DNA of 64,000 bases from an uncultured Gammaproteobacteria bacterium (GCA_964459725.1 CAYWNT010000003.1:47592-111591), one strand, 5' to 3'; positions 468 to 62,975 are shown, numbered from the stretch's first letter. Notes: generated from the letters alone by a model not told the origin. Translations and numbers: made by a program.

Positions 468-2228
468 TTAATTTCTTTTTATTATTTTTTCTTTTATTTC
501 ATCAATAAAATCTTTCTTGCTTATCTCTCTGGTGTCATTCTGGCCACGATCTCGAACTGATAACTTCTCTGACTTCAATTCCTTATCTCCTATCACTAAT
601 ACATAAGGCACTTTTTCCTGAGTTGCTTTTCTAATTTTATTTCCCACTGTCTCACTATGATCATCCACCTCCACACGAACACCCCCTTCTCTGAGCTCAC
701 CTGCAAGCTTGTGGCAATGCTCAATGTGTCCTTCGCCTACTGATATTATTTTTACCTGCACTGGTGATAGCCAGACTGGGAATTTTCCTGCATATCTCTC
801 TATTAAAAAAGCCATTGTTCTTTCAAGACATCCGATTGAAGAGCGATGAATAACCATTGGTCTCACTTTTTTATCATTTTTATCTATATAGGACATGTCG
901 AATCTATCCGGCATGGCAAAATCAATCTGCACTGTAAATGCTGTATCCTCTTTTCCGTTAACGTTTCTCATTTGAACATCTAATTTCGGCCCATAAAAAG
1001 CAGCCTCATCTTCCGCTTCAACATATTCTAACTTCATTTTATCAAGAATCTTTTTCATCGAACCTTGTGATTTGTGCCATGATTCCGGATCATCAATATA
1101 TTTTTCTTTATTATTTGGATCCCATTTTGAAAATCGATATGAATAATCTTCGATACCAAGAGCCTTCATACCATATTGAACCAAGTCAACCACATCTTCA
1201 AACTCTTTCTCCAGCTGATCAGGTCTGCATATTATATGTGCATCAACAAGAGAAAAGCTCATCACCCTGATCAACCCAGAAAGTTCTCCAGATTGCTCCC
1301 TTCTGTAAAGCTTGGCAATTTCTGCATATCTGATTGGCAGCTCCTTGTAACTTCTTGGCCTAGAATTATAAATCATAAATTGATGAGGGCAAGTCATTGG
1401 CCGCAGCACATACTCATCACCTTCTATCTCCATTGATGGATACATATCTTCTTTAAAATGATCCCAATGTCCAGATTTCTTATACAAATCAACCTTGGCT
1501 AAATCTGGGGTGTATGTTCTGTGGTAACCTCTCTTTGTTTCTTCATCAACGATAAATCTTTCTAGTTCTTGTCTAATTATTGACCCCTTTGGAGTGAGCA
1601 AGGGCAATCCACTTCCCACTAACTTAGAAGTGACAAAAAGATCAAGCTCGCTGCCTAATTTCCTATGATCTCTCTCGGCTGCCTCTTTCATCATTTCGAT
1701 ATGCTTCTTTAATTCTTCGTTTGTTTCGAATGCAAGTCCGTAAATACGAGTAAGCATTTTATTTTTCTCATCACCCTTCCAGTATGCACCAGCGATTTTA
1801 TTCAGCTTGAAACTACCTTTATTTATTTCTTTTGTTGATTCCACATGAGGTCCACTGCATAAATCCTCAAAATTTCCTGATTTATAATAACTTACTTTTG
1901 TTTTACCGTCACCTTTTAAATCCTCTATTAACTCTACCTTATACTTCTGTTTGCGATTTTTTTCCTTGGCAATTGCCTCATTTGCGCTAACCTCCTCTTT
2001 CTCAAACTTGATATTCTGCTTTACTAGATGGTTCATTTTCTTCTCGATCTTTTTTAAATCTTCTTCGTTTACTTTTTCTTCTCCAAAATCAAAATCATAA
2101 TAAAATCCATTTTCTGCCGCTGGACCAATTGCAAATTTCACTTCTGGCCATAACTCACTCACGGCCATAGCAAGAATATGCGACAATGAATGACGCTTAA
2201 CTTCTATTTGTTCGTATTTTTTTTCCAT
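468..2228 (-). CDS. thrS: threonyl-tRNA synthetase
   Basis: 586 aa; class II aaRS core and ThrRS C-terminal anticodon-binding domain (HRSSIGCLERTMAFLIERYAGKFPVWLSPVQVKI); N-terminal editing/TGS-like region. Confidence 0.95.
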   Translation of the reverse strand: MEKKYEQIEVKRHSLSHILAMAVSELWPEVKFAIGPAAENGFYYDFDFGEEKVNEEDLKKIEKKMNHLVKQNIKFEKEEVSANEAIAKEKNRKQKYKVELIEDLKGDGKTKVSYYKSGNFEDLCSGPHVESTKEINKGSFKLNKIAGAYWKGDEKNKMLTRIYGLAFETNEELKKHIEMMKEAAERDHRKLGSELDLFVTSKLVGSGLPLLTPKGSIIRQELERFIVDEETKRGYHRTYTPDLAKVDLYKKSGHWDHFKEDMYPSMEIEGDEYVLRPMTCPHQFMIYNSRPRSYKELPIRYAEIAKLYRREQSGELSGLIRVMSFSLVDAHIICRPDQLEKEFEDVVDLVQYGMKALGIEDYSYRFSKWDPNNKEKYIDDPESWHKSQGSMKKILDKMKLEYVEAEDEAAFYGPKLDVQMRNVNGKEDTAFTVQIDFAMPDRFDMSYIDKNDKKVRPMVIHRSSIGCLERTMAFLIERYAGKFPVWLSPVQVKIISVGEGHIEHCHKLAGELREGGVRVEVDDHSETVGNKIRKATQEKVPYVLVIGDKELKSEKLSVRDRGQNDTREISKKDFIDEIKEKIIKRN

Positions 2229-2463
2229 ATTATTAAATTTAATATAGTATTATAAAGACATTTTTTTAATAAAAAAACCTCATCCTAATACACTAAAATA
2301 ATGTACTGGGACGAGGCATTTCCCCGCGGTTCCACCCAGTTTCCTGGAAAAACCAGGCAACTTTGAACTTATATTTTCAAACTTAGCTCCATATACTTAT
2401 GAAATACTGCATAACCAATATGCAGCCTTGTGGTTGGTAGCCACAACAATCATTTGAGAAATA
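2229..2463 (-). promoter_or_regulatory. T-box riboswitch leader of thrS, with putative promoter and intrinsic terminator
   Basis: Plus-strand cgcggttccaccc agttt at 2325-2342 is the reverse complement of the T-box consensus AAnnnGGGUGGnACCGCG. Immediately downstream on the minus strand is a hairpin (2278-2316, CCUCGUCC...GGAUGAGG with one G-U pair) followed by U7 (plus A-run 2271-2277), a terminator. Upstream are the hairpin cctgg-aaaaa-ccagg (2342-2356) and a long stem at 2417-2450. Putative promoter on the minus strand: TTGACT (plus 2494-2499), 17 nt spacer, TATATT (plus 2471-2476). Confidence 0.6.
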
Positions 2464-2508
2464 TAATTTAAATATATAATATTATTTATCTATAGTCAAT
2501 TCCCCTGT

Positions 2509-4113
2509 CTATTTCCTAATTTCTATTTCAATGCTATCAGAAAGCCAAACCTTTTGTAAAAAAGAAGGCATAAACGACGGATAAAAACTTACCTCATGAC
2601 CGGAAAGACCTGGTACATCCTTTAGATACGCTTCCAGCTGATTTTTCTTGAGTCCTACTAAACGATCTTTGCTTATTATTTCAGCATCTCCTTTTAGACT
2701 AACTCGCCCTTCAAATGTCGAGTTGATAGTAGCGTGCTGGCTGCTGAGATCATAATTATTGAGAGAATACTCTATATTCTCATCATCAAAACTTACCAAC
2801 TCTTTGGCCTCTGACAATGACGACCTTATTTTCTTCTCAGCGAGATCGGCTGTTTTTTCGCTATTAAAAGCGACCACAACAACACTGGCCTCCATTGTCG
2901 CTTGGAATTCATCTTTTTCATCTCCAATTTCTGAATCTACATCAATTTCTGCTGAACTATTGGCAATATCATAAATTACTTTATCATAATCATCATACTC
3001 TTCTCCAATTTTCTTTTGAGCTGCAAGCAAAATATTTTTCTTTAGCATTCTTTTCGCATTTTCAATATCATCCTCTACGATATATTTTTTTACTTTTTGT
3101 CTGTAGACTACATCTGTCTTGCTTTCTGCAAATACCTTATCCTGAAGACCAGCCCATAATCCTGGGATTGTGAATTTACTAGGTCCGATTGCCATCTCTC
3201 TGCTTGCCTCATCGGCATATATCTCAACATCAACACTTCCACCCACTGGCACATTTACTGTATTTTTTATACGGAACAATTTACCATCGTTACTAAGAAG
3301 TCTTGTAGTGGCTACTAGAGGCTGAACTTTTGTGTAGTTATTATAAATAGTAACTGAACCGACTGCTTCTTTCCCAATAATCTCCTCCCCGGTAGAGCTA
3401 AACTCTTTTGAATCCTCTACCTTTATCTCTCTAACAATTCCCAAAACAGTACTACCTATCACCTCCTCTTCGGTGCTTACGTCTTTTACATCGAAAATTA
3501 GATTATTACTTGTTCTCTCCAAATTCGGAATTAATACAATATTAACACGCACAAATGTAAAGTAAAAAACAAAGAATAAAACCAACAACACACAAGCAAT
3601 AAAGAAGTATACGATTCGCTTGTAGAGCTTGAATGATTTTTTTGTCGGAGGCGGTGCAGTGTCGTCTTGAGAGACTTCTTCGGTTTTCTCACTATTCAAA
3701 GATTCTGTGATTTTTTTTACAGCGCTACTTTCTCCCCATAATCCATTCTCATCTTTGCCTTCTGGTTTTTCTTCTTCTTGTGCTGCCTGGCTAAAACTTG
3801 CCTGTCCTGAGCTTGTCGAGGTGGTCGAAAGGTCATCTTTTCCCTCATCTTCAATAACTGGCTCGGTACTATCTCCTTCTGGTTCCATTTTTTCAGTCTC
3901 CAAAACCTTGCTTTTTCCTTTTATCTTAATATCAATGTCTACTTCTTCTGGCTCATCTAATTCTTCTACAATTTTTGTCTTTTCTTTTGGCTGACTCTTT
4001 TTAGTAACCTTTTTAGGACTTTTCACTTTTTTTGGGGATGGCTTTGCTGTTTTTCCGGCAGCTTTGGAAGTTTTCTTTTGAGTACTTTTTATTGATATTT
4101 TTTTAGTAGCCAT
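2509..4113 (-). CDS. hypothetical single-pass membrane protein with lysine-rich histone-H1-like cytoplasmic tail and large extracytoplasmic domain
   Basis: 534 aa; N-terminal KK/PKK-rich low-complexity region, acidic linker, one TM helix (IVYFFIACVLLVLFFVFYFTFV), then a ~350-aa domain. No motif recognised. Confidence 0.6.
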   Translation of the reverse strand: MATKKISIKSTQKKTSKAAGKTAKPSPKKVKSPKKVTKKSQPKEKTKIVEELDEPEEVDIDIKIKGKSKVLETEKMEPEGDSTEPVIEDEGKDDLSTTSTSSGQASFSQAAQEEEKPEGKDENGLWGESSAVKKITESLNSEKTEEVSQDDTAPPPTKKSFKLYKRIVYFFIACVLLVLFFVFYFTFVRVNIVLIPNLERTSNNLIFDVKDVSTEEEVIGSTVLGIVREIKVEDSKEFSSTGEEIIGKEAVGSVTIYNNYTKVQPLVATTRLLSNDGKLFRIKNTVNVPVGGSVDVEIYADEASREMAIGPSKFTIPGLWAGLQDKVFAESKTDVVYRQKVKKYIVEDDIENAKRMLKKNILLAAQKKIGEEYDDYDKVIYDIANSSAEIDVDSEIGDEKDEFQATMEASVVVVAFNSEKTADLAEKKIRSSLSEAKELVSFDDENIEYSLNNYDLSSQHATINSTFEGRVSLKGDAEIISKDRLVGLKKNQLEAYLKDVPGLSGHEVSFYPSFMPSFLQKVWLSDSIEIEIRK

Positions 4114-4219: not shown

Positions 4220-7200
4220 CTACGCAATTTGTATTTGATCACCTAGCCTGTTTTTCAATTCTGTAATCAAATAAGGAGTGTGCGCGATCCTGAAGTCTGT
4301 TTCGAGCACCTTTTTATCCCCGTTCAAGCTTATCTCAAAAATCACCTTGCTCTCACCGGAATATTTATTAAAAATATCTTTAAGCCTTTCCAGTTGTCCG
4401 GCCTCAATTGATTTTGTAAAAATTATTTTCAAATCTTTAATTGGTGTATAATTTCTGGCTTTAGTGCTGCCTCCGTTTGCCAAATTCAATTTTCCCACCA
4501 CCTCTTTTATATTTCTCAAACTTACTCCGAAGGCAGTATTGGCGAGTAGCTTAGTCTCTCCATCCTTATCTGACAATTTACCCTGACAAATAACAACCTT
4601 ACCCTCTTTCCAGATATTATAAGTGTCTTTGTATAGATTTGGGAACACCAGAATTTCCAAACCCCCTGTATCGTCTTCAATTTTTACAAAAAGCATGGAC
4701 TTGCTATTTCTGGTGATAATTTTTTGAACCTTAGTTATGATTCCTGCGATAGTGATAGGTTTTTCTCCTGCCTTGGGTATATCTTTTATTGGTTCGATTA
4801 TGCCTTTTAACTCCTCTTTAAAATCAGAAAAAGGGTGAGCAGAAACATAGAGGCCTAGGAGTTCTTTTTCCCAACCAAGTTTGGCCTGCTTATCGATGGC
4901 CGGAAACTCATCAAGTCTGACCTTGGCACCAGTTTCAATATTAGCTGCATCAGCAAATAGGCTTATTTGCTTACTATTTTTCTCTTTGGCTACTTCCTTG
5001 TTGTAGTTCAGTAGATTCTCCACATTACCAAGCAATAATCCCCTTTCTCCAAAATTATCCATTGCCCCACTCTTTATCAAGCTTTCAATAGATTTTTTAT
5101 TTAAATCCTTATCTGTTATCCTTTCCAAAAAATCGCTCAAATCCTTGAAGTTCCCACTTCTCTTTCTTTCGTCTATAATAACTTCAGCAATATGCTCACC
5201 TATGTTCTTTACCGCCGACAACCCAAATCTAATCGTGTCTCCTGATTTTTCTTTGCCAACCAATTTTCCATTATCAAATTCTGATTTTACAACTGTAAAT
5301 GATTCAAACGACTGATCAACATCAGGTCTTTTTACCTCGATGTTCATTCTCTGACATTCTTCAATTTCTACTGCCAATCTGTCGATATTTTGCTGATCAG
5401 AAACCAAGAGAGCCGCCATAAACTCAGTTGGAAAATGTGCCTTAAGGTAGGCTGTCTGATATCCAATCAAGGCATAGCACGCTGCGTGACTACGGTTAAA
5501 ACCATACCCGGCAAAAGGCTCAATAAATGAAAATATTTTCTTGGCCAATGTCTCGTTTATACCATTAGCAACACAACCTTTGATAAACTTATCCTTCTGT
5601 TCGTTTAAAAGTTTTATAATCTTTTTTCCTACCGCTTTTCTCAAAACATCAGCCTCGGCCATAGTGAATCCTGCCAAATCTCTGGCCATTTGCATTACTT
5701 GCTCCTGGTAAATCGCAACTCCATAAGTTTTTTTGAGAATTGGTTCAAGTTTCGGATGAAGATATGTTGGTTTTTTCCTGCCATGTTTTCCGGAAATATA
5801 ATCAGGTATCCATTCCATTGGTCCTGGACGGTAGAGGGCCACCATAGCGATAACATCCTCAAACTCCGTAGGTTTGAGCTCTCGTAGATACCTCTTCATG
5901 CCGCTGGACTCAAACTGAAAAACACCCGTAGTTTCACCATTGGCAAAGAGTTCGTAAGTCTTCTTATCATCTAGCGGTATTTTCTCGATATCAACCTCAT
6001 CCCCACGAGTACCTTTTATAATCCTAATAGCTGATTCTATAACAGTTAGGTTTTTAAGTCCTAGAAAATCCATTTTCAAGAGCCCAAGATCCTCTGTCGG
6101 ATGCAGTGAGTATTGTGACACTATACTCTTATCAGAAGATGATGCGTACTGGACTGGGACATTCTCTGTCAACGGATCCTTGGTAATCAGAACTCCGCAG
6201 GCATGTGTAGAAGAGTGTCTAGACACTCCTTCGAGGCGACGAGCATAATCAACAACGGTTTTTGCAGTTTCGTCATTATTATACATTTGTTTGAACTCAT
6301 CAACCGTTTCAATGGCTTCGTCTATCTTGGTAAACATCGGAATAGCCTTTGATAGCTTGTCGCAATAATCATAAGGCACATCCAAGACACGGCCCACATC
6401 CTTTACCGCAGCTCTGGCCGCCATAGTTCCAAAAGTAATTATCTGAGATACGTGATCTTTTCCATATTTCTCTTCCACATAATTAATAACTTCATCACGC
6501 CTTGTATCAGCAAAGTCGAGGTCAATATCAGGCATGGAAACACGATCCGGGTTCAAAAATCGCTCAAACAAAAGACCATATTGGAGTGGATCCAAATTTG
6601 TAATTCCGGTCAGATAGCAAACCAGAGATCCAGCAGCGCTTCCCCTTCCGGGTCCGACTACTATCCCCTGATCCTTAGCCCAACTAACAAAATCAGCTAC
6701 AATTAAAAAATATGAAGGCCAGCCCATTTTTCCGATAACCGACAATTCATAATCCATTCTCTCGCGGATCTCTTGACTCACCTCTTTGTAGGTCTTTCCA
6801 TATCTCTTCACCAGGCCGTCTTCACATATTTTCCTAAAATAAGAATCCTCGTCATACCCATCTGGCACTTCAAAGTATGGCAACTGAACTTTTCCTAGCT
6901 CAATTTCAACATTACATTTTTCTGCGATTTTTACTGTATTCTCTATTGCCTCTGGGATATCCTTGAAGTCTTCAATCATTTGCGCAGTAGTTCTCATGGA
7001 AAAATCATTTCCGGTCATGCACATTCTGTTTGCATCATCCTTCTTTTTCTTGTTTTGCATACAAAGCAGGATGTCCTGTGCCTCATCATCCTCCTTTTTC
7101 AGATAGTGAGTATCATTGGTGGCGACCACGGGAATACCTAGCTCCTTTGACATTTTTATCAACTCTTTGTTGACCTCCTCTTGACTCTCGAGATTTGGGT

Positions 7201-7732: not shown

Positions 7733-7838
7733 ATTTAAAACTGAGATTTATTATATTTGAAGTATTTCTATTTGTTTAATATATTATATTATTGTGTTTT
7801 TGGCAAATAAAAAATACAATTTTCTCCACTTACAGATA

Positions 7839-7880
7839 AATGTTGTAAAAAGTTCGCGGCCGTGAACTTTTTACAACATT
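7839..7880. terminator. AT-arm/GC-core palindrome (ttgtaaaaagttcgcggccgtgaactttttacaa); probable terminator or operator between the TraB-like gene and the dnaE start
   Basis: Near-perfect 17-bp arms with one G-U position; same architecture as the palindromes at 37685-37741 and 21463-21496. Confidence 0.4.
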
Positions 7881-7898
7881 TAAATTTATATTTGGATT

Positions 7899-21462: not shown

Positions 21463-21496
21463 GTCTATAATTTCCGCGGTCGTGGAAATTATAGAC
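21463..21496. repeat. palindromic element (gtctataatttcc-gcggtcgt-ggaaattatagac). Its first 23 nt recur inverted at 22175-22197. Also acts as the terminator of the 21564-22091 gene.
   Basis: 13-bp perfect arms; the plus-strand A-run 21455-21462 gives a U-tract on the minus strand; exact 23/23 inverted copy at 22175-22197. Confidence 0.5.
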
Positions 21497-37684: not shown

Positions 37685-37741
37685 AAAAAAACCATGTTGT
37701 AAAAATCCCGCGGCCGCGGGATTTTTACAACATGGTTTTTT
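37685..37741. terminator. long palindromic bidirectional terminator between convergent typA and the 37751 gene
   Basis: aaaaaaaccatgttgtaaaaatcccgcggccgcgggatttttacaacatggtttttt, ~24-bp perfect arms around gcggccgc. Confidence 0.7.
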
Positions 37742-49461: not shown

Positions 49462-49809
49462 TTTAACCAAAAGCTAAAAGAATATAAAGAAAGGCAACAA
49501 GAAATAAATGATAAATTGCAGACTTTAGATGTTGCTGATGAAGACTATTATATCACCGTAAACACAGTACTATCTCTTGCTCAGCGGGCATTAGAAATAT
49601 TTGAAAGTTCTGAAGTGTCTGAAAAACGACAACTTCTCAATTTTCTACTTCGGAACCTTGAATTGAGAGGAAAAAAGTTGGAATATAAGCTAAAAGCACC
49701 GTTTGATACGGTGCTTAAAGCGAACGAGTGTTCTGATTTGCTCCCGGGGTCGGATTCGAAGGGTTCAAGCCCCAACACCATCAACAATTCACAATTCTAC
49801 TTCTTGTAA
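49462..49809 (+). pseudogene. C-terminal fragment of a large serine recombinase (truncated remnant)
   Basis: EKRQLLNFLLRNLELRGKKLEYKL / LLPGSDS parallels TKKEILSIIGSNLTLKDNILNISL / LLPGSDS at the C-terminus of the intact recombinase. It reads into the att repeat in the same frame. N-terminal catalytic and zinc-ribbon parts are missing. The annotated ATG lies inside a 28-bp perfect palindrome (49346-49373). Confidence 0.45.
49738..49760. repeat. 23-nt direct repeat of the tRNA-Asn 3' end (attL of the intact element / tRNA-proximal att of the remnant)
   Basis: ttgctcccggggtcggattcgaa identical to 62934-62956. Confidence 0.6.
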
Positions 49810-50180
49810 CCGTTCAACTATAATACATTATTCTGCTGCACTTAAACACTTCTCAGCTCGATTCTCATCACAAACCACAGATACCAAATATAAAAACACC
49901 TCGAATGAGGTGCTTTTATATTTGCTCCGCGGAATATATGAAGTTAGAACCTCTATTTGTCTAAAACAAACATGCTTTATTAAATAAATTTGAAATACTT
50001 AGAGGGGGGGGCTACCCGAAAACTTCCCTTTTTGATTTAAAATAAAATTGGCCTCTGTGAAATTTGCATCAATTTTCAGAAAATGATGTGTTTGATGTCG
50101 GTGATGTTTTTTTTAAATCATTTTAAATATTTATAAAAACCTACAAAAAAAGCGAATTATATATAATTCGCTTTTAATAA

Positions 50181-52440: not shown

Positions 52441-53760
52441 TTATTTAATAATTCTGGTTAAGGCATCATCAAATGACATGAGAGATTGTTCTCCTGTAAC
52501 CATGTCCTTCAAGGCCACCTTATTTTGGCTTCTTTCATCCTCACCAATAATAATTACATAAGGAATCCCTTTCCTGTTGGCATAGGATAATTTTTTTGAG
52601 AATTTATCATTTTCGACATATACTTCAGTTATGACACCAGCAGATCTTAACTGTGTAGCTACTTCAAATGGGGACTGGAGATTATCATCCAATGAAACAA
52701 CCAAAACTTTTGTCAAAGAAAGTTGTTCGGCTTTAATTATGCCAGCCTCTTTCAGCTGATAAAAAAGTCTTGTTAATCCAATTGAAATACCCACTCCAGG
52801 CAATTTATTGTTCGTATAACTTTCTGCCAAGTTGTCAAATCTGCCACCAGAACAAACTGATCCAATTTTAGGGTAGTCTGTTAACAATGTTTCATAAACA
52901 GTGCCCGTATAATAATCAAGTCCTCTAGCGATAGACAAATCAATAATAAAATTATTCTCAGGAACATTCAAATTACGAATATTCTGAATAACAACAGCAA
53001 GTTCCTCTACTCCTTCAGAGAATAACTTATTTTCAATTGACAGATTCTTCAAATCGCCAATAATAGAATCATTATCTCCTTTAATGCTCAAGAACTTCAG
53101 CAGGTCATCAACACCGTCATTTGAAACGCCAAGTTCAATCAGTTCTTTGGAGACCTCTTCTTCTCCGATTTTCTCGATTTTGTCAACAACTCGAAGAATT
53201 TCAGTAGAAGAAACTTCTGTGCTTAAATTCTGAAAAAATCCATTTAGAATTTTCCTATTATTAATCCTAATGAGAAAATTTTCAAATCCCAGAGATTTAA
53301 ATGTGAAATAAATCACACTTGGAATCTCGGCGTCATGGTGAAGACTCAAAGAACCGTTTCCAATGATATCAATATCACACTGATAAAATTCCCGAAAACG
53401 TCCTCTTTGTGCACGTTCTCCTCTGTGAACTTTGCCAATGTGGCAACGTCTAAAAGGAAAGGTTAATTCAGAATAATACTGACTTACATATCTCGCCAAA
53501 GGCACAGTTAAATCAAACCTTAAGGCAAGCTCATTTTTACCCTTTTTGAATCTGTAAAGTTGCTTTTCAGTTTCGCCGCCAACTTTCGCAAGTAACACCT
53601 CTGCTTTTTCAATGTCTGGTGTGTCAATCGGAGTAAAACCGAATAACTCATAACACTCCCGAATGGTACTCATCATCTTATTAAACAATAACTGATCAGC
53701 AGGAAGTAACTCCATAAATCCAGAAGGAATTGATGGTTGAACAATGTTGTTTTTCTTCAT
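52441..53760 (-). CDS. hisS: histidyl-tRNA synthetase, full length with anticodon-binding domain
   Basis: 439 aa; class II motifs; HisRS signatures RGERAQRGRFREFYQCD, ARGLDYYTGTVYE, GGRFDNL; C-terminal anticodon-binding fold (VLVVSL...IPYVIIIGEDE). No T-box seen upstream. Confidence 0.85.
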   Translation of the reverse strand: MKKNNIVQPSIPSGFMELLPADQLLFNKMMSTIRECYELFGFTPIDTPDIEKAEVLLAKVGGETEKQLYRFKKGKNELALRFDLTVPLARYVSQYYSELTFPFRRCHIGKVHRGERAQRGRFREFYQCDIDIIGNGSLSLHHDAEIPSVIYFTFKSLGFENFLIRINNRKILNGFFQNLSTEVSSTEILRVVDKIEKIGEEEVSKELIELGVSNDGVDDLLKFLSIKGDNDSIIGDLKNLSIENKLFSEGVEELAVVIQNIRNLNVPENNFIIDLSIARGLDYYTGTVYETLLTDYPKIGSVCSGGRFDNLAESYTNNKLPGVGISIGLTRLFYQLKEAGIIKAEQLSLTKVLVVSLDDNLQSPFEVATQLRSAGVITEVYVENDKFSKKLSYANRKGIPYVIIIGEDERSQNKVALKDMVTGEQSLMSFDDALTRIIK

Positions 53761-54087: not shown

Positions 54088-55170
54088 TTATTTCCCAGAT
54101 TTCCTTCTGTTGCACTCTTTGCATAACATTTGGCAATTTTTTTCAATTGATTTCCCTCCCTCGTGCCAAGGTGTTATGTGATCAGCTTCCATTCTTTCTA
54201 TCTCAAATTTTTCCTTACATGCTTTACAAATACCTTTTTGCTTCTCGTAAACCTTTTGCTTAACTGCATCAGTAAATGCACGAATAGAAAGATATTTTTC
54301 ATTACGGGTTAAAATGTATGGATAGATACCGCTCTTTTTTGTGACATCATCATCAAGTATTAACCTTTCTGTTTCTTCTTCAATTTCCTTTGTATTATAT
54401 TTCTCATCTTTATATGCATTATAAAGAATACCCCAATCAACACCTTTCATAAACTTTCTTTTTTTGATAAAAGTCGTATTTACCCAAGTCATTACATCTT
54501 GAAAATATCGCCATAAAGCTCCCGCATTTTGGTCGTGCTGATGGTCGGACATATATTCTTCTATTTTGTTATTAGAAATCCATTTAATCGCTGTTTCAAG
54601 ATAATCTTGACGAATTGGCGAGCCATTTAGATAATCACCTCCTGTCTGATAGGCAACGCAACCATTTTTACTAAAATATCGTTTTGCATCAGTAACCCAA
54701 GTTCCAGAATAAACAGCGTTTCGGAGTTCTTGTTCTGTTAATTTTTCACCCGCAATATTTATTGTTTTAAACCAATCTAATTTTTCACTATCTGTTCCGC
54801 TACACTGATAAACAGTGAGTTTATAATCCAAAATCTGTTCTCGTTTATCCTTTGGCAAATTATGAAAAGCCATGCCGTTGATTGAAAAATCTCCTTCGGC
54901 ATATTGGCAAATTGAAATGGTACGTTGTTGACCATCAATAATTTCAAAATTCCCATCTTCACGAACAGCCCAATACATCACATTAAGAGGAAATTTTTTT
55001 GTAATAGTATCAATAACCGCATCCCTTTGTTTGTCTTTGTAAATAAATTCTCTTTGGTAAGGAGGGCGAATATCAAGCTTACCACCATATCCAACAACAC
55101 CATCCTCAGCATTGTCTTTAAAATCCTTTATCAATTCACAAATAGTTATTTCTTTTAATTGTATTTTCAT
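54088..55170 (-). CDS. DUF262 (ParB-like nuclease superfamily) fused to C-terminal HNH endonuclease; GmrSD-like putative restriction endonuclease
   Basis: 360 aa; N-terminal RPPYQREF...IIDGQQR (DUF262 DGQQR signature); C-terminal CKACKEKF...EADHITPWHEGGKS...CQMLCKECNRRKS (HNH). Confidence 0.75.
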   Translation of the reverse strand: MKIQLKEITICELIKDFKDNAEDGVVGYGGKLDIRPPYQREFIYKDKQRDAVIDTITKKFPLNVMYWAVREDGNFEIIDGQQRTISICQYAEGDFSINGMAFHNLPKDKREQILDYKLTVYQCSGTDSEKLDWFKTINIAGEKLTEQELRNAVYSGTWVTDAKRYFSKNGCVAYQTGGDYLNGSPIRQDYLETAIKWISNNKIEEYMSDHQHDQNAGALWRYFQDVMTWVNTTFIKKRKFMKGVDWGILYNAYKDEKYNTKEIEEETERLILDDDVTKKSGIYPYILTRNEKYLSIRAFTDAVKQKVYEKQKGICKACKEKFEIERMEADHITPWHEGGKSIEKNCQMLCKECNRRKSGK

Positions 55171-55189
55171 AATAAAATCTATTAAAAAA

Positions 55190-56266
55190 CTAAAGTTTTT
55201 TATTTTTAATAAGTATTCTTTTATATATAAACTTACCAGCTACCATTGGTGCTCCCCCTTTATCGGCAAATCCTTTTATGTGATATCGATTTCCTTCATT
55301 TGCAATGTTTGCATCGGCCCTACCAACAATTTCAAACTGCTCAGGATTATGTTTATCCATAAATGTAATTGGAACACCCATTACGCCCTTATAATCAATT
55401 GGAATTTCTGCAACCTTATTCACATTTATAGCCTTGTAATTATCGTATTTCGGATATTCATCCTCGTTTCCCTTATACATTTTATAAAGAACGATATCTT
55501 CGTTGTGCTTTTCTACCTCAAGATTTGTGAACCAACATGAAGTAGAAACACGAGCTATTTTATTTCCATCGTCATCAATATGATGATATTTTTCCCAGTT
55601 ATCTGGGACAACAAAAAACATTCCAACATTAAAATTTGTATATCCCGTTCTAAACCTGTTTTTTTCGATTAATTTAAAAATTTCTTTGTAGGTTATTGCA
55701 TTTGTATTTCCTATTATTAGAAATTTTTTATTATATTCTTCTAGTTGCTCGACAAATTTACGGAACAAAGAAAATGGTGGGTTGGTTACGACAATATCCG
55801 ATTCTTTTAAAATTTTCACAGATTCCTCACTCCTAAAATCACCATCTCCTTTAAGCGGGGTTGCAACATTTTTATCATGCTTCAAAAGCCATTCAACATC
55901 CGCCATACTTACAGCACCATCATTATCAAGATCTTTAACTTCATTTATTTCAATTTTCATTGGCTCTTTTTTCTTTGCTGTTTTTAATCCTTCTACTTCG
56001 AGCAAGGAAAGTTGTCCCCCAACAACGGGCGACCCCGCATAGCTTGTGGCAATAAGTTTTTTAAGACCAAGTACATTGAAACTAGAAGCAAAATATTTAA
56101 AAAAGCTACTTTCAAACGGATCATCCGCATTGCAATAAACAGTTTTATTTTTAAATTGTTTTTTGTAATATTTTAACTCTTTTTCTATATCAGAAAGCTG
56201 AGTATAAAACTCATCCTTCTTTGCTTTATTTGCTTGTCTTAAGTTTTTATTGGAAAATTTAGGCAT
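55190..56266 (-). CDS. N6-adenine DNA methyltransferase, EcoRI-methylase-like family (call from memory)
   Basis: 358 aa; N-terminal KAKKDEFYTQ and catalytic NPPF (VVTNPPFS). 19-bp gap to the downstream nuclease gene, so operonic. Confidence 0.65.
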   Translation of the reverse strand: MPKFSNKNLRQANKAKKDEFYTQLSDIEKELKYYKKQFKNKTVYCNADDPFESSFFKYFASSFNVLGLKKLIATSYAGSPVVGGQLSLLEVEGLKTAKKKEPMKIEINEVKDLDNDGAVSMADVEWLLKHDKNVATPLKGDGDFRSEESVKILKESDIVVTNPPFSLFRKFVEQLEEYNKKFLIIGNTNAITYKEIFKLIEKNRFRTGYTNFNVGMFFVVPDNWEKYHHIDDDGNKIARVSTSCWFTNLEVEKHNEDIVLYKMYKGNEDEYPKYDNYKAINVNKVAEIPIDYKGVMGVPITFMDKHNPEQFEIVGRADANIANEGNRYHIKGFADKGGAPMVAGKFIYKRILIKNKKL

Positions 56267-56327
56267 AGTTCAACACTTCTACACCGACTGTTTGTGTTTT
56301 TGGGTATCAAAAAAGGACAGCCGAGGT

Positions 56328-56448
56328 GTTGAACCACAATAGTTCATCCCGAGGGAATCCCTAATCGTAGAACTCGACTGCCCATTCCAGCCTACGATTA
56401 GGCAAAAAATGGGCAGTTTCCGCTCAGGATATTCTATTGTGGTTCAAC
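56328..56448. other. 121-nt region of nested and interleaved perfect inverted repeats (candidate structured RNA, origin or operator)
   Basis: A gttgaaccacaatag 56328-56342 / A' 56434-56448 (15 bp); B cctaatcgtag 56360-56370 / B' 56392-56402 (11 bp); C ctgcccatt 56378-56386 / C' 56408-56416 (9 bp). Order A-B-C-B'-C'-A' is pseudoknot-compatible. Confidence 0.5.
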
Positions 56449-56583
56449 ATTTTTAATTTACCACTAAAATAATAAAAAATCAACCTTGCTACCCAGTGCT
56501 ACTCACTATATTTCAGCTTGATTTTTCGCCAAAATTAAAGTAAGATATAGGCAATATTACTATTATAATTAGATGACATTATT

Positions 56584-57741
56584 ATGAAAATTGAGCTTAT
56601 TATTGAACAATTAAAAGATTATTTCAATTCTCCAAAAACCAATTTTGAAAATTGGGATTTCTATATTAATCTATCTGAATATGTTGAATTTATTAATAAT
56701 ACGCCAGAATTAAAAGCAGAAGTAAAAAAACTTGAGAAAGAAAGAGATGAGTGTTACAAGAAATATTATCAACTAAGGAATAAATCCTGGGAAGAAATAA
56801 AAAAATCAGGAAATCAATTATTAACAATATTAGATGCAAATAAAATATCAAAGATAAAAGATAATGAGTTAATAGACGAAATAAAAGAATTAAAAGGCTT
56901 TGTTGCTGGGACGGTTTTATACGGTGAAAAAAAGCCAGTCAGTATTATAAATCGTTTACTTGACGATATAGCTGTGCATCTTGCAAATGATAAAAAAGGA
57001 AAGCTAGTTGAAAAATTTATTAATTCCAAAAACCCATCTCGATTTATATTTTCAAAAACTCTGCCTTTATTTTGTGAAATGGAACGTGATATTGAAGATA
57101 ATTTAGAAAATGAAAAATGGCATTATTGGTATATGTTGAAAGATATACCAGACATCATTAAATTGCCTCTTAACAAAAGTATTTCTATTTCTAACAAATA
57201 TAGCAATCTACCCTATGAAGAATATAAGTATTATTTTTTGTTTTTTGAAATCAAAAGAGATTTTAAAAAAAATCAAGGAAAAATTAATCAATATATGAAG
57301 CAAGATATTCTTAAATATAAAAATTATTTTCAAAGTATAAATAATTATTTGATAAAACAGCTGTTCAACCAAATAAAAGAACAAGACAAAAAATATAATT
57401 TTGAGTTCCGCGAAAATTATCTTTACTATAATGAACGAAAAGGAGATAAAAAATTTCTTGATGAAGAACAACATGCACACACACTCAGATTTATTATTGT
57501 TAACCGAGAAAAACCTTTGATTTTATATAATGATATTAAAAATTATCTACATGATTCAAAAATAAAATTAAAATTGAAAAAATCGTTTACTGAAAGCGAC
57601 AATCAATATAATATAAACAGAGCTATTGTGCGCCATTGCGACACGATAGAAAAATATATTAAAAAAGATTTTCCAGAACTAGAAAATAATAAAATTTTTG
57701 AACAGATACCGAATCAAGGAATTGAATTTTTGTTAGACTGA
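56584..57741 (+). CDS. hypothetical Lys/Asn-rich protein (element gene); terminator hairpin at 57771-57793
   Basis: 385 aa; extremely AT-rich codons; no motif recognised. Confidence 0.5.
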   Translation: MKIELIIEQLKDYFNSPKTNFENWDFYINLSEYVEFINNTPELKAEVKKLEKERDECYKKYYQLRNKSWEEIKKSGNQLLTILDANKISKIKDNELIDEIKELKGFVAGTVLYGEKKPVSIINRLLDDIAVHLANDKKGKLVEKFINSKNPSRFIFSKTLPLFCEMERDIEDNLENEKWHYWYMLKDIPDIIKLPLNKSISISNKYSNLPYEEYKYYFLFFEIKRDFKKNQGKINQYMKQDILKYKNYFQSINNYLIKQLFNQIKEQDKKYNFEFRENYLYYNERKGDKKFLDEEQHAHTLRFIIVNREKPLILYNDIKNYLHDSKIKLKLKKSFTESDNQYNINRAIVRHCDTIEKYIKKDFPELENNKIFEQIPNQGIEFLLD

Positions 57742-57907: not shown

Positions 57908-58159
57908 ATGACAAAAATATTAAATGAAAGAGATTTTTTCAAAACAGCCGATCTGAGCCTAGCATCCAGCCTTCGTTATTATGGCTATATAGTCGAGGCT
58001 ATTGATAGGCAAAACCCTAAAAAAGTAGAATTTTTATTCATTCGTGATAATGACTTAGATAAGATAATCCATCAATTTTGGTCACGTTTGCTAACTGTCG
58101 AACCAGTTGCTTATTTCGGTTTCATTAAGGAATTAAAAAATAGATTATACTCAGAATAA
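57908..58159 (+). CDS. hypothetical small protein
   Basis: 83 aa. Confidence 0.45.
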   Translation: MTKILNERDFFKTADLSLASSLRYYGYIVEAIDRQNPKKVEFLFIRDNDLDKIIHQFWSRLLTVEPVAYFGFIKELKNRLYSE

Positions 58160-58161
58160 AT

Positions 58162-58323
58162 ATGAACCTTTCAGATCGGCAAATTACCAAATTTCAAGAA
58201 TTATATTATAACCGCTTTGGTGAAAAAATAAACCGAGAAGTGGCTCTTGAGCAAGGGATAAAACTTGTACGGTTAATGGAGTTGGTATTTAAACCTGCAA
58301 ATGATTCTGAAATTAAGGAATAA
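58162..58323 (+). CDS. possible unannotated small ORF (53 aa), tightly packed between neighbours
   Basis: Own translation: MNLSDRQITKFQELYYNRFGEKINREVALEQGIKLVRLMELVFKPANDSEIKE. ATG 2 nt after the upstream stop; the next gene starts 25 nt after its stop. Confidence 0.35.
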   Translation: MNLSDRQITKFQELYYNRFGEKINREVALEQGIKLVRLMELVFKPANDSEIKE

Positions 58324-61158: not shown

Positions 61159-61352
61159 TTTAATCTATTAGCCTGTATATTGAAATTATTACTGTTTATG
61201 CTATACTATAAGTGCTTACCTAATACAATAAATACGCAAAGGTTTTTTAATTGTCGCCTGAAATGGGCGGTTCTACCGATAATTTTTTACCTTTGTGTAG
61301 ATGTATTGGGTAAGCTAGAACCGTCCTTTTTTGTTTACTAAATTATAATTAT

Positions 61353-62975
61353 ATGGAAACAAATAACAAAAAAACCAAATATTTCCTTTACGCTAGAAAA
61401 TCTAGTGAATCTGAGGACAGGCAAATGGCATCAATTGATTCTCAAATAAAAGAACTAGAAACTATAGCCAAACAAAATAATCTTGATGTAATAGAAACTT
61501 TCTCAGAATCTATGTCAGCCAAATCACCTGGGAGACCAGTTTTTAATGAAATGATAAGTAGAATTAAAAAAGGAGAGGCTAATGGTGTTATTTGTTGGAA
61601 ATTAAATAGGCTAGCTAGAAATCCAATAGACGGGGGAGAAATAAGTTGGATGATTCAACAAGGCATCATTGAGCATATCCAAACCTTTGGCAGAAGTTAC
61701 TACCCTACTGATAACGTAATAGTTATGGCAGTAGAACTGGGCATGGCAAATCAATTTATTAGAGATTTAAGTGTGGACACCAAAAGAGGGCTTAAAAGCA
61801 AAGCTGAAAGAGGCTGGTATCCAACATTCTCAGCTATGGGCTATATGCATAATCCATATAAATACAAAGGAGAAAAAGAAATAATCAAAGACCCCGAAAG
61901 GTTTTATTTAGTCAGGAAAATGTTTGATCTAATGCTAACTGGAATACATACTCCTCCTCAAATATTGAAAACAGCTACAGAAGAATGGGGTCTCCGAAAT
62001 AAGAAAGGAGGAAAAATTGCTAATAGCACTATTTATAGAATATTTAGTGACCCTTTTTACTATGGAGAGTTTGAATGCCCAAAAGGAAGTGGTAATTGGT
62101 ATAGGGGCAAACATGAGCCGATGATAACCAGAAAAGAATTTGATAACATTCAATTTTTACTTGGGAGAAAATGCAAACCCAGGGCTAAAACAAAACAATT
62201 CCCTTTTACAGGAATGATTAGATGTGGTGAATGTGGTGCTATGATAACCGCAGAAGATAAAGTAAAAAGACAAAAAAATGGAAATGTACATTATTATACA
62301 TATTACAGATGCACTAAACGTAAAGACCCGAATTGCACTCAAAAAACTATTAGAAAAGAATTACTTGAAGAACAAATAGTAAATGAGCTTGAAACAATAG
62401 AAATTCCAAGAGAATTTACAGAATGGGCATTTGACGTTATTAAAACTGAAAACAAAAAAAATTATTCTAGTAGAAATAATATTATTTCAAATCAACAGAA
62501 GCTCTATGATGAATGCTTAAGGAAACTTGATGGACTTATAGACATGAGAGCTAACAATGAGATAAACGCTGATGATTTCAACAGGAAAAAAACTGAATTA
62601 ACAAAAGAAAAAGAAAGAATACAGAAACTTCTTAAAGACTCTGATAAAAATAATGACAACTGGATTGAATCAGCTGAGAAGTTATTTTTGTTTGCTGAAA
62701 ACGCTAAGACTACTTTTCAGGATGGAGATATAAATACAAAGAAAGAGATACTATCCATTATCGGTTCGAACCTCACCCTAAAAGATAATATACTCAATAT
62801 TTCATTGAACAAAACTCTAGAACTCATAAAAAACATCTCTCCAGAGGTAAATACCATTCAAAAACGGTTAGAACCTCTCAATATGCCCGAAGATAAGCAA
62901 AAACTCTGGGCAAATTATGCCCAGAGTCCTATGTTGCTCCCGGGGTCGGATTCGAACCGACGACCAATTGATTAA
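61353..62975 (+). CDS. large serine recombinase (integrase) of the element
   Basis: 540 aa; resolvase-type catalytic domain (YARKSSESEDRQMASIDSQ...WKLNRLARN), recombinase domain, zinc ribbon (CGECGAMITAED...YYRCTKRKDPNC), coiled-coil C-terminus; the 3' end overlaps the tRNA-Asn 3' end. Confidence 0.85.
   Translation: METNNKKTKYFLYARKSSESEDRQMASIDSQIKELETIAKQNNLDVIETFSESMSAKSPGRPVFNEMISRIKKGEANGVICWKLNRLARNPIDGGEISWMIQQGIIEHIQTFGRSYYPTDNVIVMAVELGMANQFIRDLSVDTKRGLKSKAERGWYPTFSAMGYMHNPYKYKGEKEIIKDPERFYLVRKMFDLMLTGIHTPPQILKTATEEWGLRNKKGGKIANSTIYRIFSDPFYYGEFECPKGSGNWYRGKHEPMITRKEFDNIQFLLGRKCKPRAKTKQFPFTGMIRCGECGAMITAEDKVKRQKNGNVHYYTYYRCTKRKDPNCTQKTIRKELLEEQIVNELETIEIPREFTEWAFDVIKTENKKNYSSRNNIISNQQKLYDECLRKLDGLIDMRANNEINADDFNRKKTELTKEKERIQKLLKDSDKNNDNWIESAEKLFLFAENAKTTFQDGDINTKKEILSIIGSNLTLKDNILNISLNKTLELIKNISPEVNTIQKRLEPLNMPEDKQKLWANYAQSPMLLPGSDSNRRPID

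Follow-up and report, generated by a model that had tools for sequence, protein, structure and literature searches.

What is the function of a cluster of interleaved inverted repeats that lies between two divergent gene sets of a mobile element? The cluster is located in the window, i.e., the whole stretch of 64,000 nt that was analysed, and a first-pass annotation had described three perfect inverted repeats within positions 56328-56448, in the strand order A-B-C-B'-C'-A'. All three repeats are present in this order. From the sequence and a repeat finder, A/A' (56328-56342 and 56434-56448) is a perfect repeat of 15 bp, which can be extended to a longer version of 27 nt with 85% complementarity (56327-56353 and 56423-56449); B/B' (56360-56370 and 56392-56402) is a perfect repeat of 11 bp, and C/C' (56377-56386 and 56408-56417) has 10 bp rather than the 9 bp originally described. 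The A arm is unique in the 64-kb window at up to two mismatches, with 0.19 chance occurrences expected. The folding z-scores against dinucleotide shuffles were −8.1 for the plus strand and −8.6 for the minus strand, and none of the 200 shuffles folded as well as the locus. In a scan of 150-nt segments across the window, the locus was the top outlier on both strands (z = −6.1, minus; −4.9, plus). The repeat density had been described as far above that of the rest of the window. This holds for the stacked and interleaved repeats and for the folding, but not for the longest single repeat, because a perfect palindrome of 28 + 28 nt at 37686-37741 is longer. This palindrome (100% complementary, with A6/T6 on its flanks) and two related ones at 7837-7882 and 21463-21496 are loop-less, perfect or near-perfect, and have ATGTTGTAAAAA...CGCGG/CCGCG...TTTTTACAACAT in common. 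The three are also among the top folding outliers, and have the appearance of bidirectional terminators or repeat elements that form a host family.

The locus sits in a 317-nt gap between two divergent gene sets. Its assignment to a position between divergent operons of an element was borne out, and the element is an integrated one. A 24-nt direct repeat of the 3' end of tRNA-Asn, found at 49737-49760 and 62933-62956, bounds an integrated element of 13.2 kb, and tRNA-Asn alone was detected in a tRNA/tmRNA scan. Three of its genes are listed here.

54088-55170, minus strand: gene for a GmrSD_N/HNH nuclease, assigned by Pfam
55190-56266, minus strand: gene for an EcoRI-family adenine methylase, assigned by Pfam; together with the nuclease gene it makes up the downstream operon (54088-56266)
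61353-62975, plus strand: gene for a large serine recombinase, whose 3' end overlaps tRNA-Asn

The rightward genes are, in order, an orphan gene for a 385-aa protein, a DUF5659 gene (57908-58159), a 53-aa ORF (58162-58323), a gene for a DnaB_N/AAA_25 helicase located 2 kb from the locus, two genes of unknown function and the large serine recombinase gene. The 385-aa ORF (56584-57741) had no homologue but itself among 5.8 billion proteins; in related elements, the same slot upstream of DUF5659 is occupied by unrelated large ORFs of 417, 575 and 668 aa. Also apparently part of the cargo of the element are genes for a histidyl-tRNA synthetase (52441-53760) and a LOG-like protein. Close to the left attachment site, on its inner side, another strong local structure was observed in 49826-50000 (minus strand; folding z about −4.3), with a hairpin at 49885-49924 that has an 18-bp stem at 94%.

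The whole unit at the locus exceeds the region first reported, and extends from about 56309, at a U tract, to about 56483, at a promoter-like −35 box. We designated it unit 1. Read on the minus strand, toward the methylase gene, its parts are as follows.

56309-56450, minus strand: unit 1, the entire predicted leader RNA, a block conserved in three contigs
56455-56483, minus strand: proximal promoter-like boxes read from the sequence, TTGATT (56483-56478), a 17-nt spacer and TAAATT (56460-56455)
56505-56532, minus strand: upstream promoter-like site TTGGCG-16-TATAGT from a consensus scan, identical in the homologous locus L128
56434-56450, minus strand: helix A, 5' arm (A' of the first description), in a helix of 16-17 bp
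56326-56342, minus strand: helix A, 3' arm (A of the first description), of which 56334-56342 doubles as a strand of helix X
56418-56430, minus strand: helix P2, 5' strand, 8 + 4 bp with one bulged C
56346-56357, minus strand: helix P2, 3' strand
56408-56417, minus strand: helix C, 5' strand, ACUGCCCAUU, which locks the 5' half of helix T and is missing from unit 2
56377-56386, minus strand: helix C, 3' strand, AAUGGGCAGU, within the motif CUGRAAUGGGCRGU
56392-56402, minus strand: helix B, 5' strand, kept in unit 2 with further compensatory changes
56360-56370, minus strand: helix B, 3' strand, whose alternative partner is the 3' arm of helix A (helix X)
56373-56383, minus strand: helix T, 5' strand, GGGCAGUCGAG, overlapping the C 3' strand and making 11 of 11 pairs with the tail
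56315-56325, minus strand: helix T, 3' strand, CUCGGCUGUCC, a 100%-conserved tail immediately after helix A
56309-56314, minus strand: U6 tract abutting helix T, found in all five copies (AU5 in unit 2 of L128)
56268-56279, minus strand: GAAGUGUUGAAC at the Shine-Dalgarno sequence and spacer of the methylase gene, resembling the helix A 5' arm and conserved in L128

The limits of unit 1 are a predicted start at (A/G)UG at the base of helix A and the end of the U6 tract, which lies 45 nt before the start of the methylase gene. From the proximal boxes, the start would be expected some 7 nt further downstream, near 56450, where helix A has its base, and boxes in an equal layout (TTGTAA-17-TATTTT) were found in a second homologous locus, L112. 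The boxes were read by sigma-70-type logic, which is an assumption for a host that appears Patescibacteria-like. The upstream site TTGGCG-16-TATAGT is an alternative start, which would lengthen the leader by about 55 nt. A promoter active as a single strand was also considered and rejected, as no −35/−10 boxes were found within the stem. For the GAAGUGUUGAAC sequence, the A 3' arm together with the first letters of the tail is a possible partner, with 11 of 12 positions paired. Inside the 385-aa gene, at 56678-56688, this word occurs a fourth time (AATATGTTGAA) and matches the beginning of the helix A 5' arm exactly; taken with 56268-56279, the result is a series of GTTCAACA / TGTTGAAC words that alternate over 420 bp.

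When metagenomes were scanned for the 10 outermost nt of the two A arms, 70 loci were returned, and two of these, L128 and L112, are true homologues. Over 299 nt, the intergenic region of L128 is 94.3% identical to that of the window. L128, too, is a tRNA-integrated element; its serine recombinase is 43% identical to that of the window, and its flanks differ: the methylase belongs to another family, the upstream gene for a 668-aa protein is unrelated, and a Toprim primase-helicase is the replication protein. Part of the 94% identity between the intergenic regions could stem from recent recombination and not from constraint. In L112, a 161-nt core with 86% identity is located upstream of, and co-oriented with, a gene for a DUF805 membrane protein. 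The contigs are found in JGI 3300007510 and 3300009008 and in SRR8062320 and SRR8062321. On the minus strand, the block conserved in the three contigs extends from about 20 nt before helix A to the U6 tract (56309-56314), and a stretch of 32 nt with 100% conservation in these contigs spans the A 3' arm and the 11-nt tail.

The first-pass annotation had proposed a comparison of homologous elements, and in this comparison the helices were kept through compensatory substitutions. In the three-copy alignment of unit 1, 97% of the cells in the four helices are paired. One compensatory double change was found in each of A, P2 and B among the homologues; those in P2 (G-C to A-U) and B (A-U to G-C) are in L112, and helix A has, besides its one compensatory pair, two changes to G.U only. 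The shuffle control for unit 1 is weak with three sequences (37 of 500). All four one-sided changes in unit 1 give G.U on the minus strand, i.e., the gene-sense strand, only, and on the plus strand, as in a DNA cruciform, the same four changes would produce A.C mismatches. The direction of this evidence is consistent with an RNA that is read toward the methylase gene.

This strand bias bears on a role at the DNA level, as a replication origin, a single-strand initiation site, a cruciform, an operator or a recombinase site, several of which had been considered for the locus from the beginning. The location in a control region between divergent genes, with the DnaB_N/AAA_25 helicase gene 2 kb away, and the four GTTCAACA-type words in 420 bp with alternating orientation, would fit such a role. 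However, the only one-sided substitutions tolerated are those that give G.U on the gene-sense strand, and a second copy with a different sequence has the same architecture and the same orientation relative to its gene. The L128 region is 94% identical beside a different replication protein, no iterons were found, the unit is also located beside the DUF805 gene in L112, and elements with the closest helicases are without it. The G.U pattern, the constant co-orientation with a downstream gene, the conserved U tract and the near-identity across different replication proteins speak against a replication origin, a nick site or an operator, and we consider a DNA-level function the least probable of the alternatives. 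The reading as a structured non-coding RNA, which had also been offered, gained support from the co-oriented position of the unit and from the conservation of its helices.

The second copy, at 61212-61332, had escaped the first-pass annotation. A covariance model built from unit 1 (R1), which scored 225 bits on the minus strand and 46 bits on the opposite strand at unit 1 itself, matched 61189-61345 on the plus strand with 43.6 bits (E = 1e-7), and the corresponding copy in L128 with E = 2e-6. We designated this paralogous copy unit 2, and its parts are as follows.

61212-61332, plus strand: unit 2, a paralogous leader RNA upstream of the serine recombinase gene, with a counterpart in L128
61180-61207, plus strand: promoter-like boxes TTGAAA-16-TATACT, with 10 of 12 consensus matches and stronger than those of unit 1
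61214-61227 and 61302-61315, plus strand: helix A
61234-61242 and 61290-61298, plus strand: helix P2
61249-61256 and 61277-61284, plus strand: helix B
61253-61258 and 61266-61271, plus strand: local hairpin C2
61265-61275 and 61316-61326, plus strand: helix T, GGGCGGUUCUA(G) and (C)UAGAACCGUCC
61327-61332, plus strand: U6 tract

The boxes would place the start at GUG at the base of the unit 2 helix A, and L128 has boxes at the equivalent place (TTGGCA-17-TACAAT). A MAFFT alignment of units 1 and 2 was not structurally consistent, and the helices were tabulated by script instead. Helices A, P2 and B are retained in unit 2 with different sequences, while the loop CUGRAAUGGGCRGU, which is kept in five of five copies, and the ending GUCC(U/A)UUUUUG are maintained. 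Unit 2 is without the C 5' strand, and a local hairpin is formed on the same GGGCGG sequence instead. Comparison of the two unit 2 copies gave three compensatory pairs in A, a wholly replaced P2, two pairs in B and one in T. A, P2 and B are thereby kept in all five copies through compensatory changes, and each of the five is followed, 20-45 nt beyond the U tract, by the start of a co-oriented gene. The compensatory evolution of the four helices and of T points to selection on RNA structure, as judged from the sequences of a family that comprises five members from three metagenomic lineages, two of them nearly identical.

These observations also bear on a selfish palindromic repeat of the MITE type, or a recently exchanged promoter cassette, with no switch at all. 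A unit of about 123 bp with imperfect terminal inverted repeats of 27 nt, found upstream of three unrelated genes and nearly identical between otherwise diverged elements, has the appearance of such a repeat. No target-site duplication was found, however, and no further copy of this kind is present elsewhere in the 64 kb; there are two copies per element at fixed positions, and compensatory evolution of four helices and T is not what a selfish repeat accounts for. This origin is improbable, only slightly less so than a function in DNA.

Another proposal for the locus, an H-type pseudoknot closed by helix A, appears unlikely, since helix C has no counterpart in the paralogue. Like an H-type pseudoknot, unit 1 has the strand order C5'-B5'-C3'-B3', with both helices conserved in the three unit 1 copies. 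In unit 2, however, helix C is absent and a local hairpin occupies the same AAUGGGCRG sequence. By helix geometry, with stems of 10 + 11 bp, loops of 5, 5 and 6 nt and P2 closing directly beneath (linkers of 0 nt and 2 nt), formation of full B and full C together is probably sterically implausible.

The search for other relatives gave negative results. Rfam 15 contained no match to the locus even at E ≤ 10, the whole window matched tRNA-Asn only, and the homologous loci matched tRNAs only; a ribozyme and a T-box were rejected on the absence of an Rfam match, and a retron msr-msd RNA was rejected, as no reverse transcriptase gene is found among the neighbours. Viral-contig scans with the methylase, the 385-aa protein or the helicase singly found no relatives, viral-contig pattern scans found chance matches or unrelated hairpins only, and BLAST against phages and plasmids found no match. 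In the literature nothing relevant was found on the 10-mers, on DUF5659 or on integrative elements of Patescibacteria. In the three elements with the closest helicases (49-57% identity) the unit is absent, and these elements have the DUF5659/small-ORF/helicase/recombinase module in common with the window. A long inverted repeat at L088 (6377-6563) proved not to be homologous to unit 1. Two features were observed at 5688-5875 and 6377-6563 of L088: a tandem duplication of about 93 bp that looks like a repeated tRNA-derived attachment sequence, and, downstream of a small ORF, a 34-nt inverted repeat (85%) around a hairpin in which CCUGCUG / CAGCAGG can pair in three alternative ways. In the same locus, 6068-6130 (minus strand) has a weak resemblance to the unit 1 tail (GGCTGTTCTTTTTTGAT; 20 bits, E = 0.02-0.18).

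Most of the 70 metagenome matches were rejected as chance, or as members of an unrelated hairpin family from soil that shares only the searched 10-nt words. This soil family is large, with hairpins of about 110-135 nt, whose stems consist of GTTGAACCAC followed by repeats of the CACAGAG / CACGAAG / CACAAAG type. It was seen at L096, L098, L101, L102, L114, L117, L130, L132, L139, L144, L149, L150, L158, L159 and about 20 more loci, often with extra pairing outside the motif; it has no Rfam match, and only the searched 10-mer is common to it and the window element. Dense arrays of GGTTCAAC / GTTGAACC words (e.g., CCATGGTTGAACCATGG), direct and inverted and iteron-like, were observed at L119, L126, L137, L138, L145 and L160.

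A conserved leader of EcoRI-family methylases in general was also rejected: nothing similar was found upstream at 80 genome loci with methylases of 57-83% identity. In L084, which contains the closest methylase/GmrSD_N-HNH pair (83% identity; 1159-3551), the position of the RNA is occupied by a gene for a 67-aa HTH protein. The presence of an HTH controller-type gene at the same position suggests that this position is a regulatory slot, and the L084 comparison points to the methylase/HNH pair as a mobile restriction-modification cassette whose regulators are interchangeable.

The 11-nt tail at 56315-56325, which lay outside the first reported region and was therefore missed, provides evidence for a second fold. 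These 11 nt between helix A and the U tract are complementary at 11 of 11 positions, counting G.U, to the 11 nt that begin at the loop GGGC, in five of five copies. In unit 1, the resulting helix T consists of 9 Watson-Crick and 2 G.U pairs. It abuts the U tract in every copy, and its position relative to AAUGGGC and the U tract is constant despite the different sequences of units 1 and 2. Shuffled tails reached 11 of 11 anywhere upstream in 10, 5 and 2 of 5000 trials, the value for unit 1 being 10 of 5000. When the 3' part was folded alone, all five copies gave T, X and a small apical hairpin, at −24 to −30 kcal/mol. Helix X is the B 3' strand paired with the A 3' arm, and the L112 changes at alignment columns 40, 78, 112 and 136 keep A, B and X simultaneously, the pattern that one would expect from one strand serving two partners. 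Three segments, 56373-56383, 56360-56370 and 56334-56342, have two partners each, and both sets of pairs are kept in all copies.

T and A would exclude each other by helix geometry, because the A 3' arm is contiguous with the T 3' strand and a linker of 0-1 nt is too short to bridge a helix of 16 bp. In addition, T crosses P2 and B, and overlaps C. A/P2/B and T/X are thus two conserved, exclusive structures that share a strand, as in an attenuator. The early suggestion of two mutually exclusive hairpins forming a switch was right in so far as there is switch-like alternative pairing, but the main choice is A/P2/B versus T/X, not B versus C. Helix T followed by U6 has the G+C-rich stem and the U tract of an intrinsic terminator. 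A compact hairpin with a short loop, as in intrinsic terminators, was not found, as T encloses 47 nt that fold into X and the small hairpin, and a consensus terminator scan called no terminator at unit 1. Fold I, the structure with A, was favoured over fold II, that with T, by 9-26 kcal/mol, and stepwise folding of prefixes gave only fold I and never T.

From these results we infer transcription from the predicted promoters, termination at U6 and regulation, and our main reading, to which we give a probability of about 0.5, is a cis-acting terminator/antiterminator leader RNA of about 145 nt, which is ON by default and by which the methylase operon and the integrase would be switched OFF together. 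Transcription on the minus strand would start near 56450 and proceed into the methylase/HNH operon, and the diverged second copy would act in the same way before the serine recombinase gene. Fold I would be a closed rod with helix A (17 bp), P2 (12 bp) and B or C on top, burying both strands of fold II. Fold II would be a long hairpin in the 3' two-thirds, formed by T (11 bp) and X with U6 immediately after, and would resemble an intrinsic terminator. With fold I the polymerase would continue into the gene, and the ribosome-binding site, in the case of unit 1, would be left free; with fold II transcription would stop at the U tract. The default state would be ON because fold I is far more stable and is formed by default, and termination would require a trigger because of this energy difference and because prefix folding never yields T. 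Candidates for the trigger are an RNA, a protein, or a ribosome on the 5'-terminal A/GUG, which may capture the 5' half or the conserved loop and so turn the switch OFF. The released A 3' arm may then pair with GAAGUGUUGAAC (56279-56268) in unit 1 of the window and of L128, as an added translational lock. No conserved leader peptide was found, as the mini-ORFs from the 5' A/GUG have 3, 8 or 21 codons, and the mixed downstream genes (DNA methylase, recombinase, DUF805) point to no common ligand or metabolite.

The conserved second fold is also the evidence on which two other RNA-level explanations have to be judged. If the rod served for RNase III-type processing, or as a stabilising hairpin at the 5' end of the mRNA, T and U6 would be incidental. 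A and P2 give a near-continuous duplex of about 28 bp with a 3 x 3 internal loop, and the T7 and lambda N-leader sites are known RNase III substrates of this size class. This explanation, however, leaves unexplained the conservation of T, with 11 of 11 pairs in five copies of different sequence, as well as the U tract and the four-way covariation that keeps X. We regard it as unlikely for the unit as a whole, although processing or stabilising could be an additional property of A/P2.

A stand-alone trans-acting sRNA is about as unlikely. It would have its own promoter and the T/U6 terminator, the rod would be its mature form, and the loop CUGRAAUGGGCRGU or the anti-Shine-Dalgarno-like tail (ACACCUCGG) would pair with target RNAs. 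The unit is indeed a discrete one of 121-145 nt from promoter to U tract, its tail and loop are 100% conserved with no obligatory partner in fold I, and pairing in trans is possible, since the loop of unit 2 is complementary to the C 5' strand of unit 1; duplex prediction between units 1 and 2 is uninformative here, because paralogous hairpins trivially cross-pair. On the other hand, the terminator cannot form if fold I forms, so efficient formation of the 3' end is unexplained, the location of all five copies immediately 5' of a co-oriented gene fits less well, and the tail is fully accounted for by T pairing.

The most fitting description of the feature is a new family of two-state leader RNAs, five instances of which are known from three metagenomic lineages. 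A more far-reaching interpretation, which we put forward tentatively and hold to be less probable than the cis-acting leader itself, is a new class of bistable leader RNAs restricted to integrative elements of Patescibacteria-like hosts, in which one shared switch serves the integrase and the restriction-modification methylase operon, is ON by default and is turned to the terminator by a signal in trans that captures the 5' half or the CUGRAAUGGGCRGU loop. The ON state might apply, e.g., on arrival in a naive cell, and the signal might come from a factor encoded by the element, from the two paralogous leaders pairing with each other, or from a 70S ribosome that loads on the 5'-terminal A/GUG of a leaderless mini-ORF. 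If this is true, an undescribed regulatory RNA family would come from poorly known hosts of the candidate-phyla type and their mobile elements, and one RNA design would be re-used to co-control integration and self-methylation/restriction, i.e., establishment functions. The locus is also an unusually clear case, at the sequence level, of a strand kept complementary to two alternative partners, and the covariance model R1 could serve as a search model for further mobile elements in metagenomes.

Several known systems are comparable with the proposed leader. Control of restriction-modification operons by a controller (C) protein probably uses the same slot, to judge from the small HTH gene of L084; the regulator there would be a protein with an operator and not an RNA, and the likeness is probably a functional analogy only. 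Riboswitch and T-box leaders are similar in that they lie in the 5'-UTR and have an end-to-end closing helix, a conserved inner loop, and an overlapping terminator with a U tract, but the 17-bp closing helix of the present leader is far too stable for ligand dependence. At the level of element biology, the closest analogy is the terminator/antiterminator control of Tn916 (PMC11658703). In Tn916, T1 is an insulator, and the canT RNA is a processive antiterminator that acts on downstream terminators (PMC11658703). Like the mechanism proposed here, it is a control of read-through at the RNA level in an integrated element, proposed to act against untimely gene expression (PMC11658703). Unlike with canT, the antiterminator and terminator overlap here in one leader and are read from sequence alone, and the two have no similarity in sequence or structure.

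The closest described logic is antisense-RNA-induced attenuation, as in the leaders of pT181 repC, pIP501 repR, pAMbeta1 and icsA/RnaG of Shigella (PMC2879508), which are neither sequence nor structural relatives of the units described here. In pT181-type systems, as in our proposal, two exclusive folds are available to the leader of a key gene of a mobile replicon, a 5' segment by default pre-empts the proximal terminator arm, and sequestering of this 5' segment frees the terminator. The pT181-type systems use a countertranscript, whereas neither an antisense promoter nor an antisense RNA was found here: opposite the leader, no convincing or conserved antisense promoter-like boxes were present in the window, L128 or L112, and the run of T that follows the stem on the plus strand has not been kept in L112. 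The pre-emptor here also differs in being a very long, near-perfect rod of about 40 bp made of A, P2 and B, and the design, which has no sequence relationship with those of the pT181 type, is duplicated before the methylase and the integrase.
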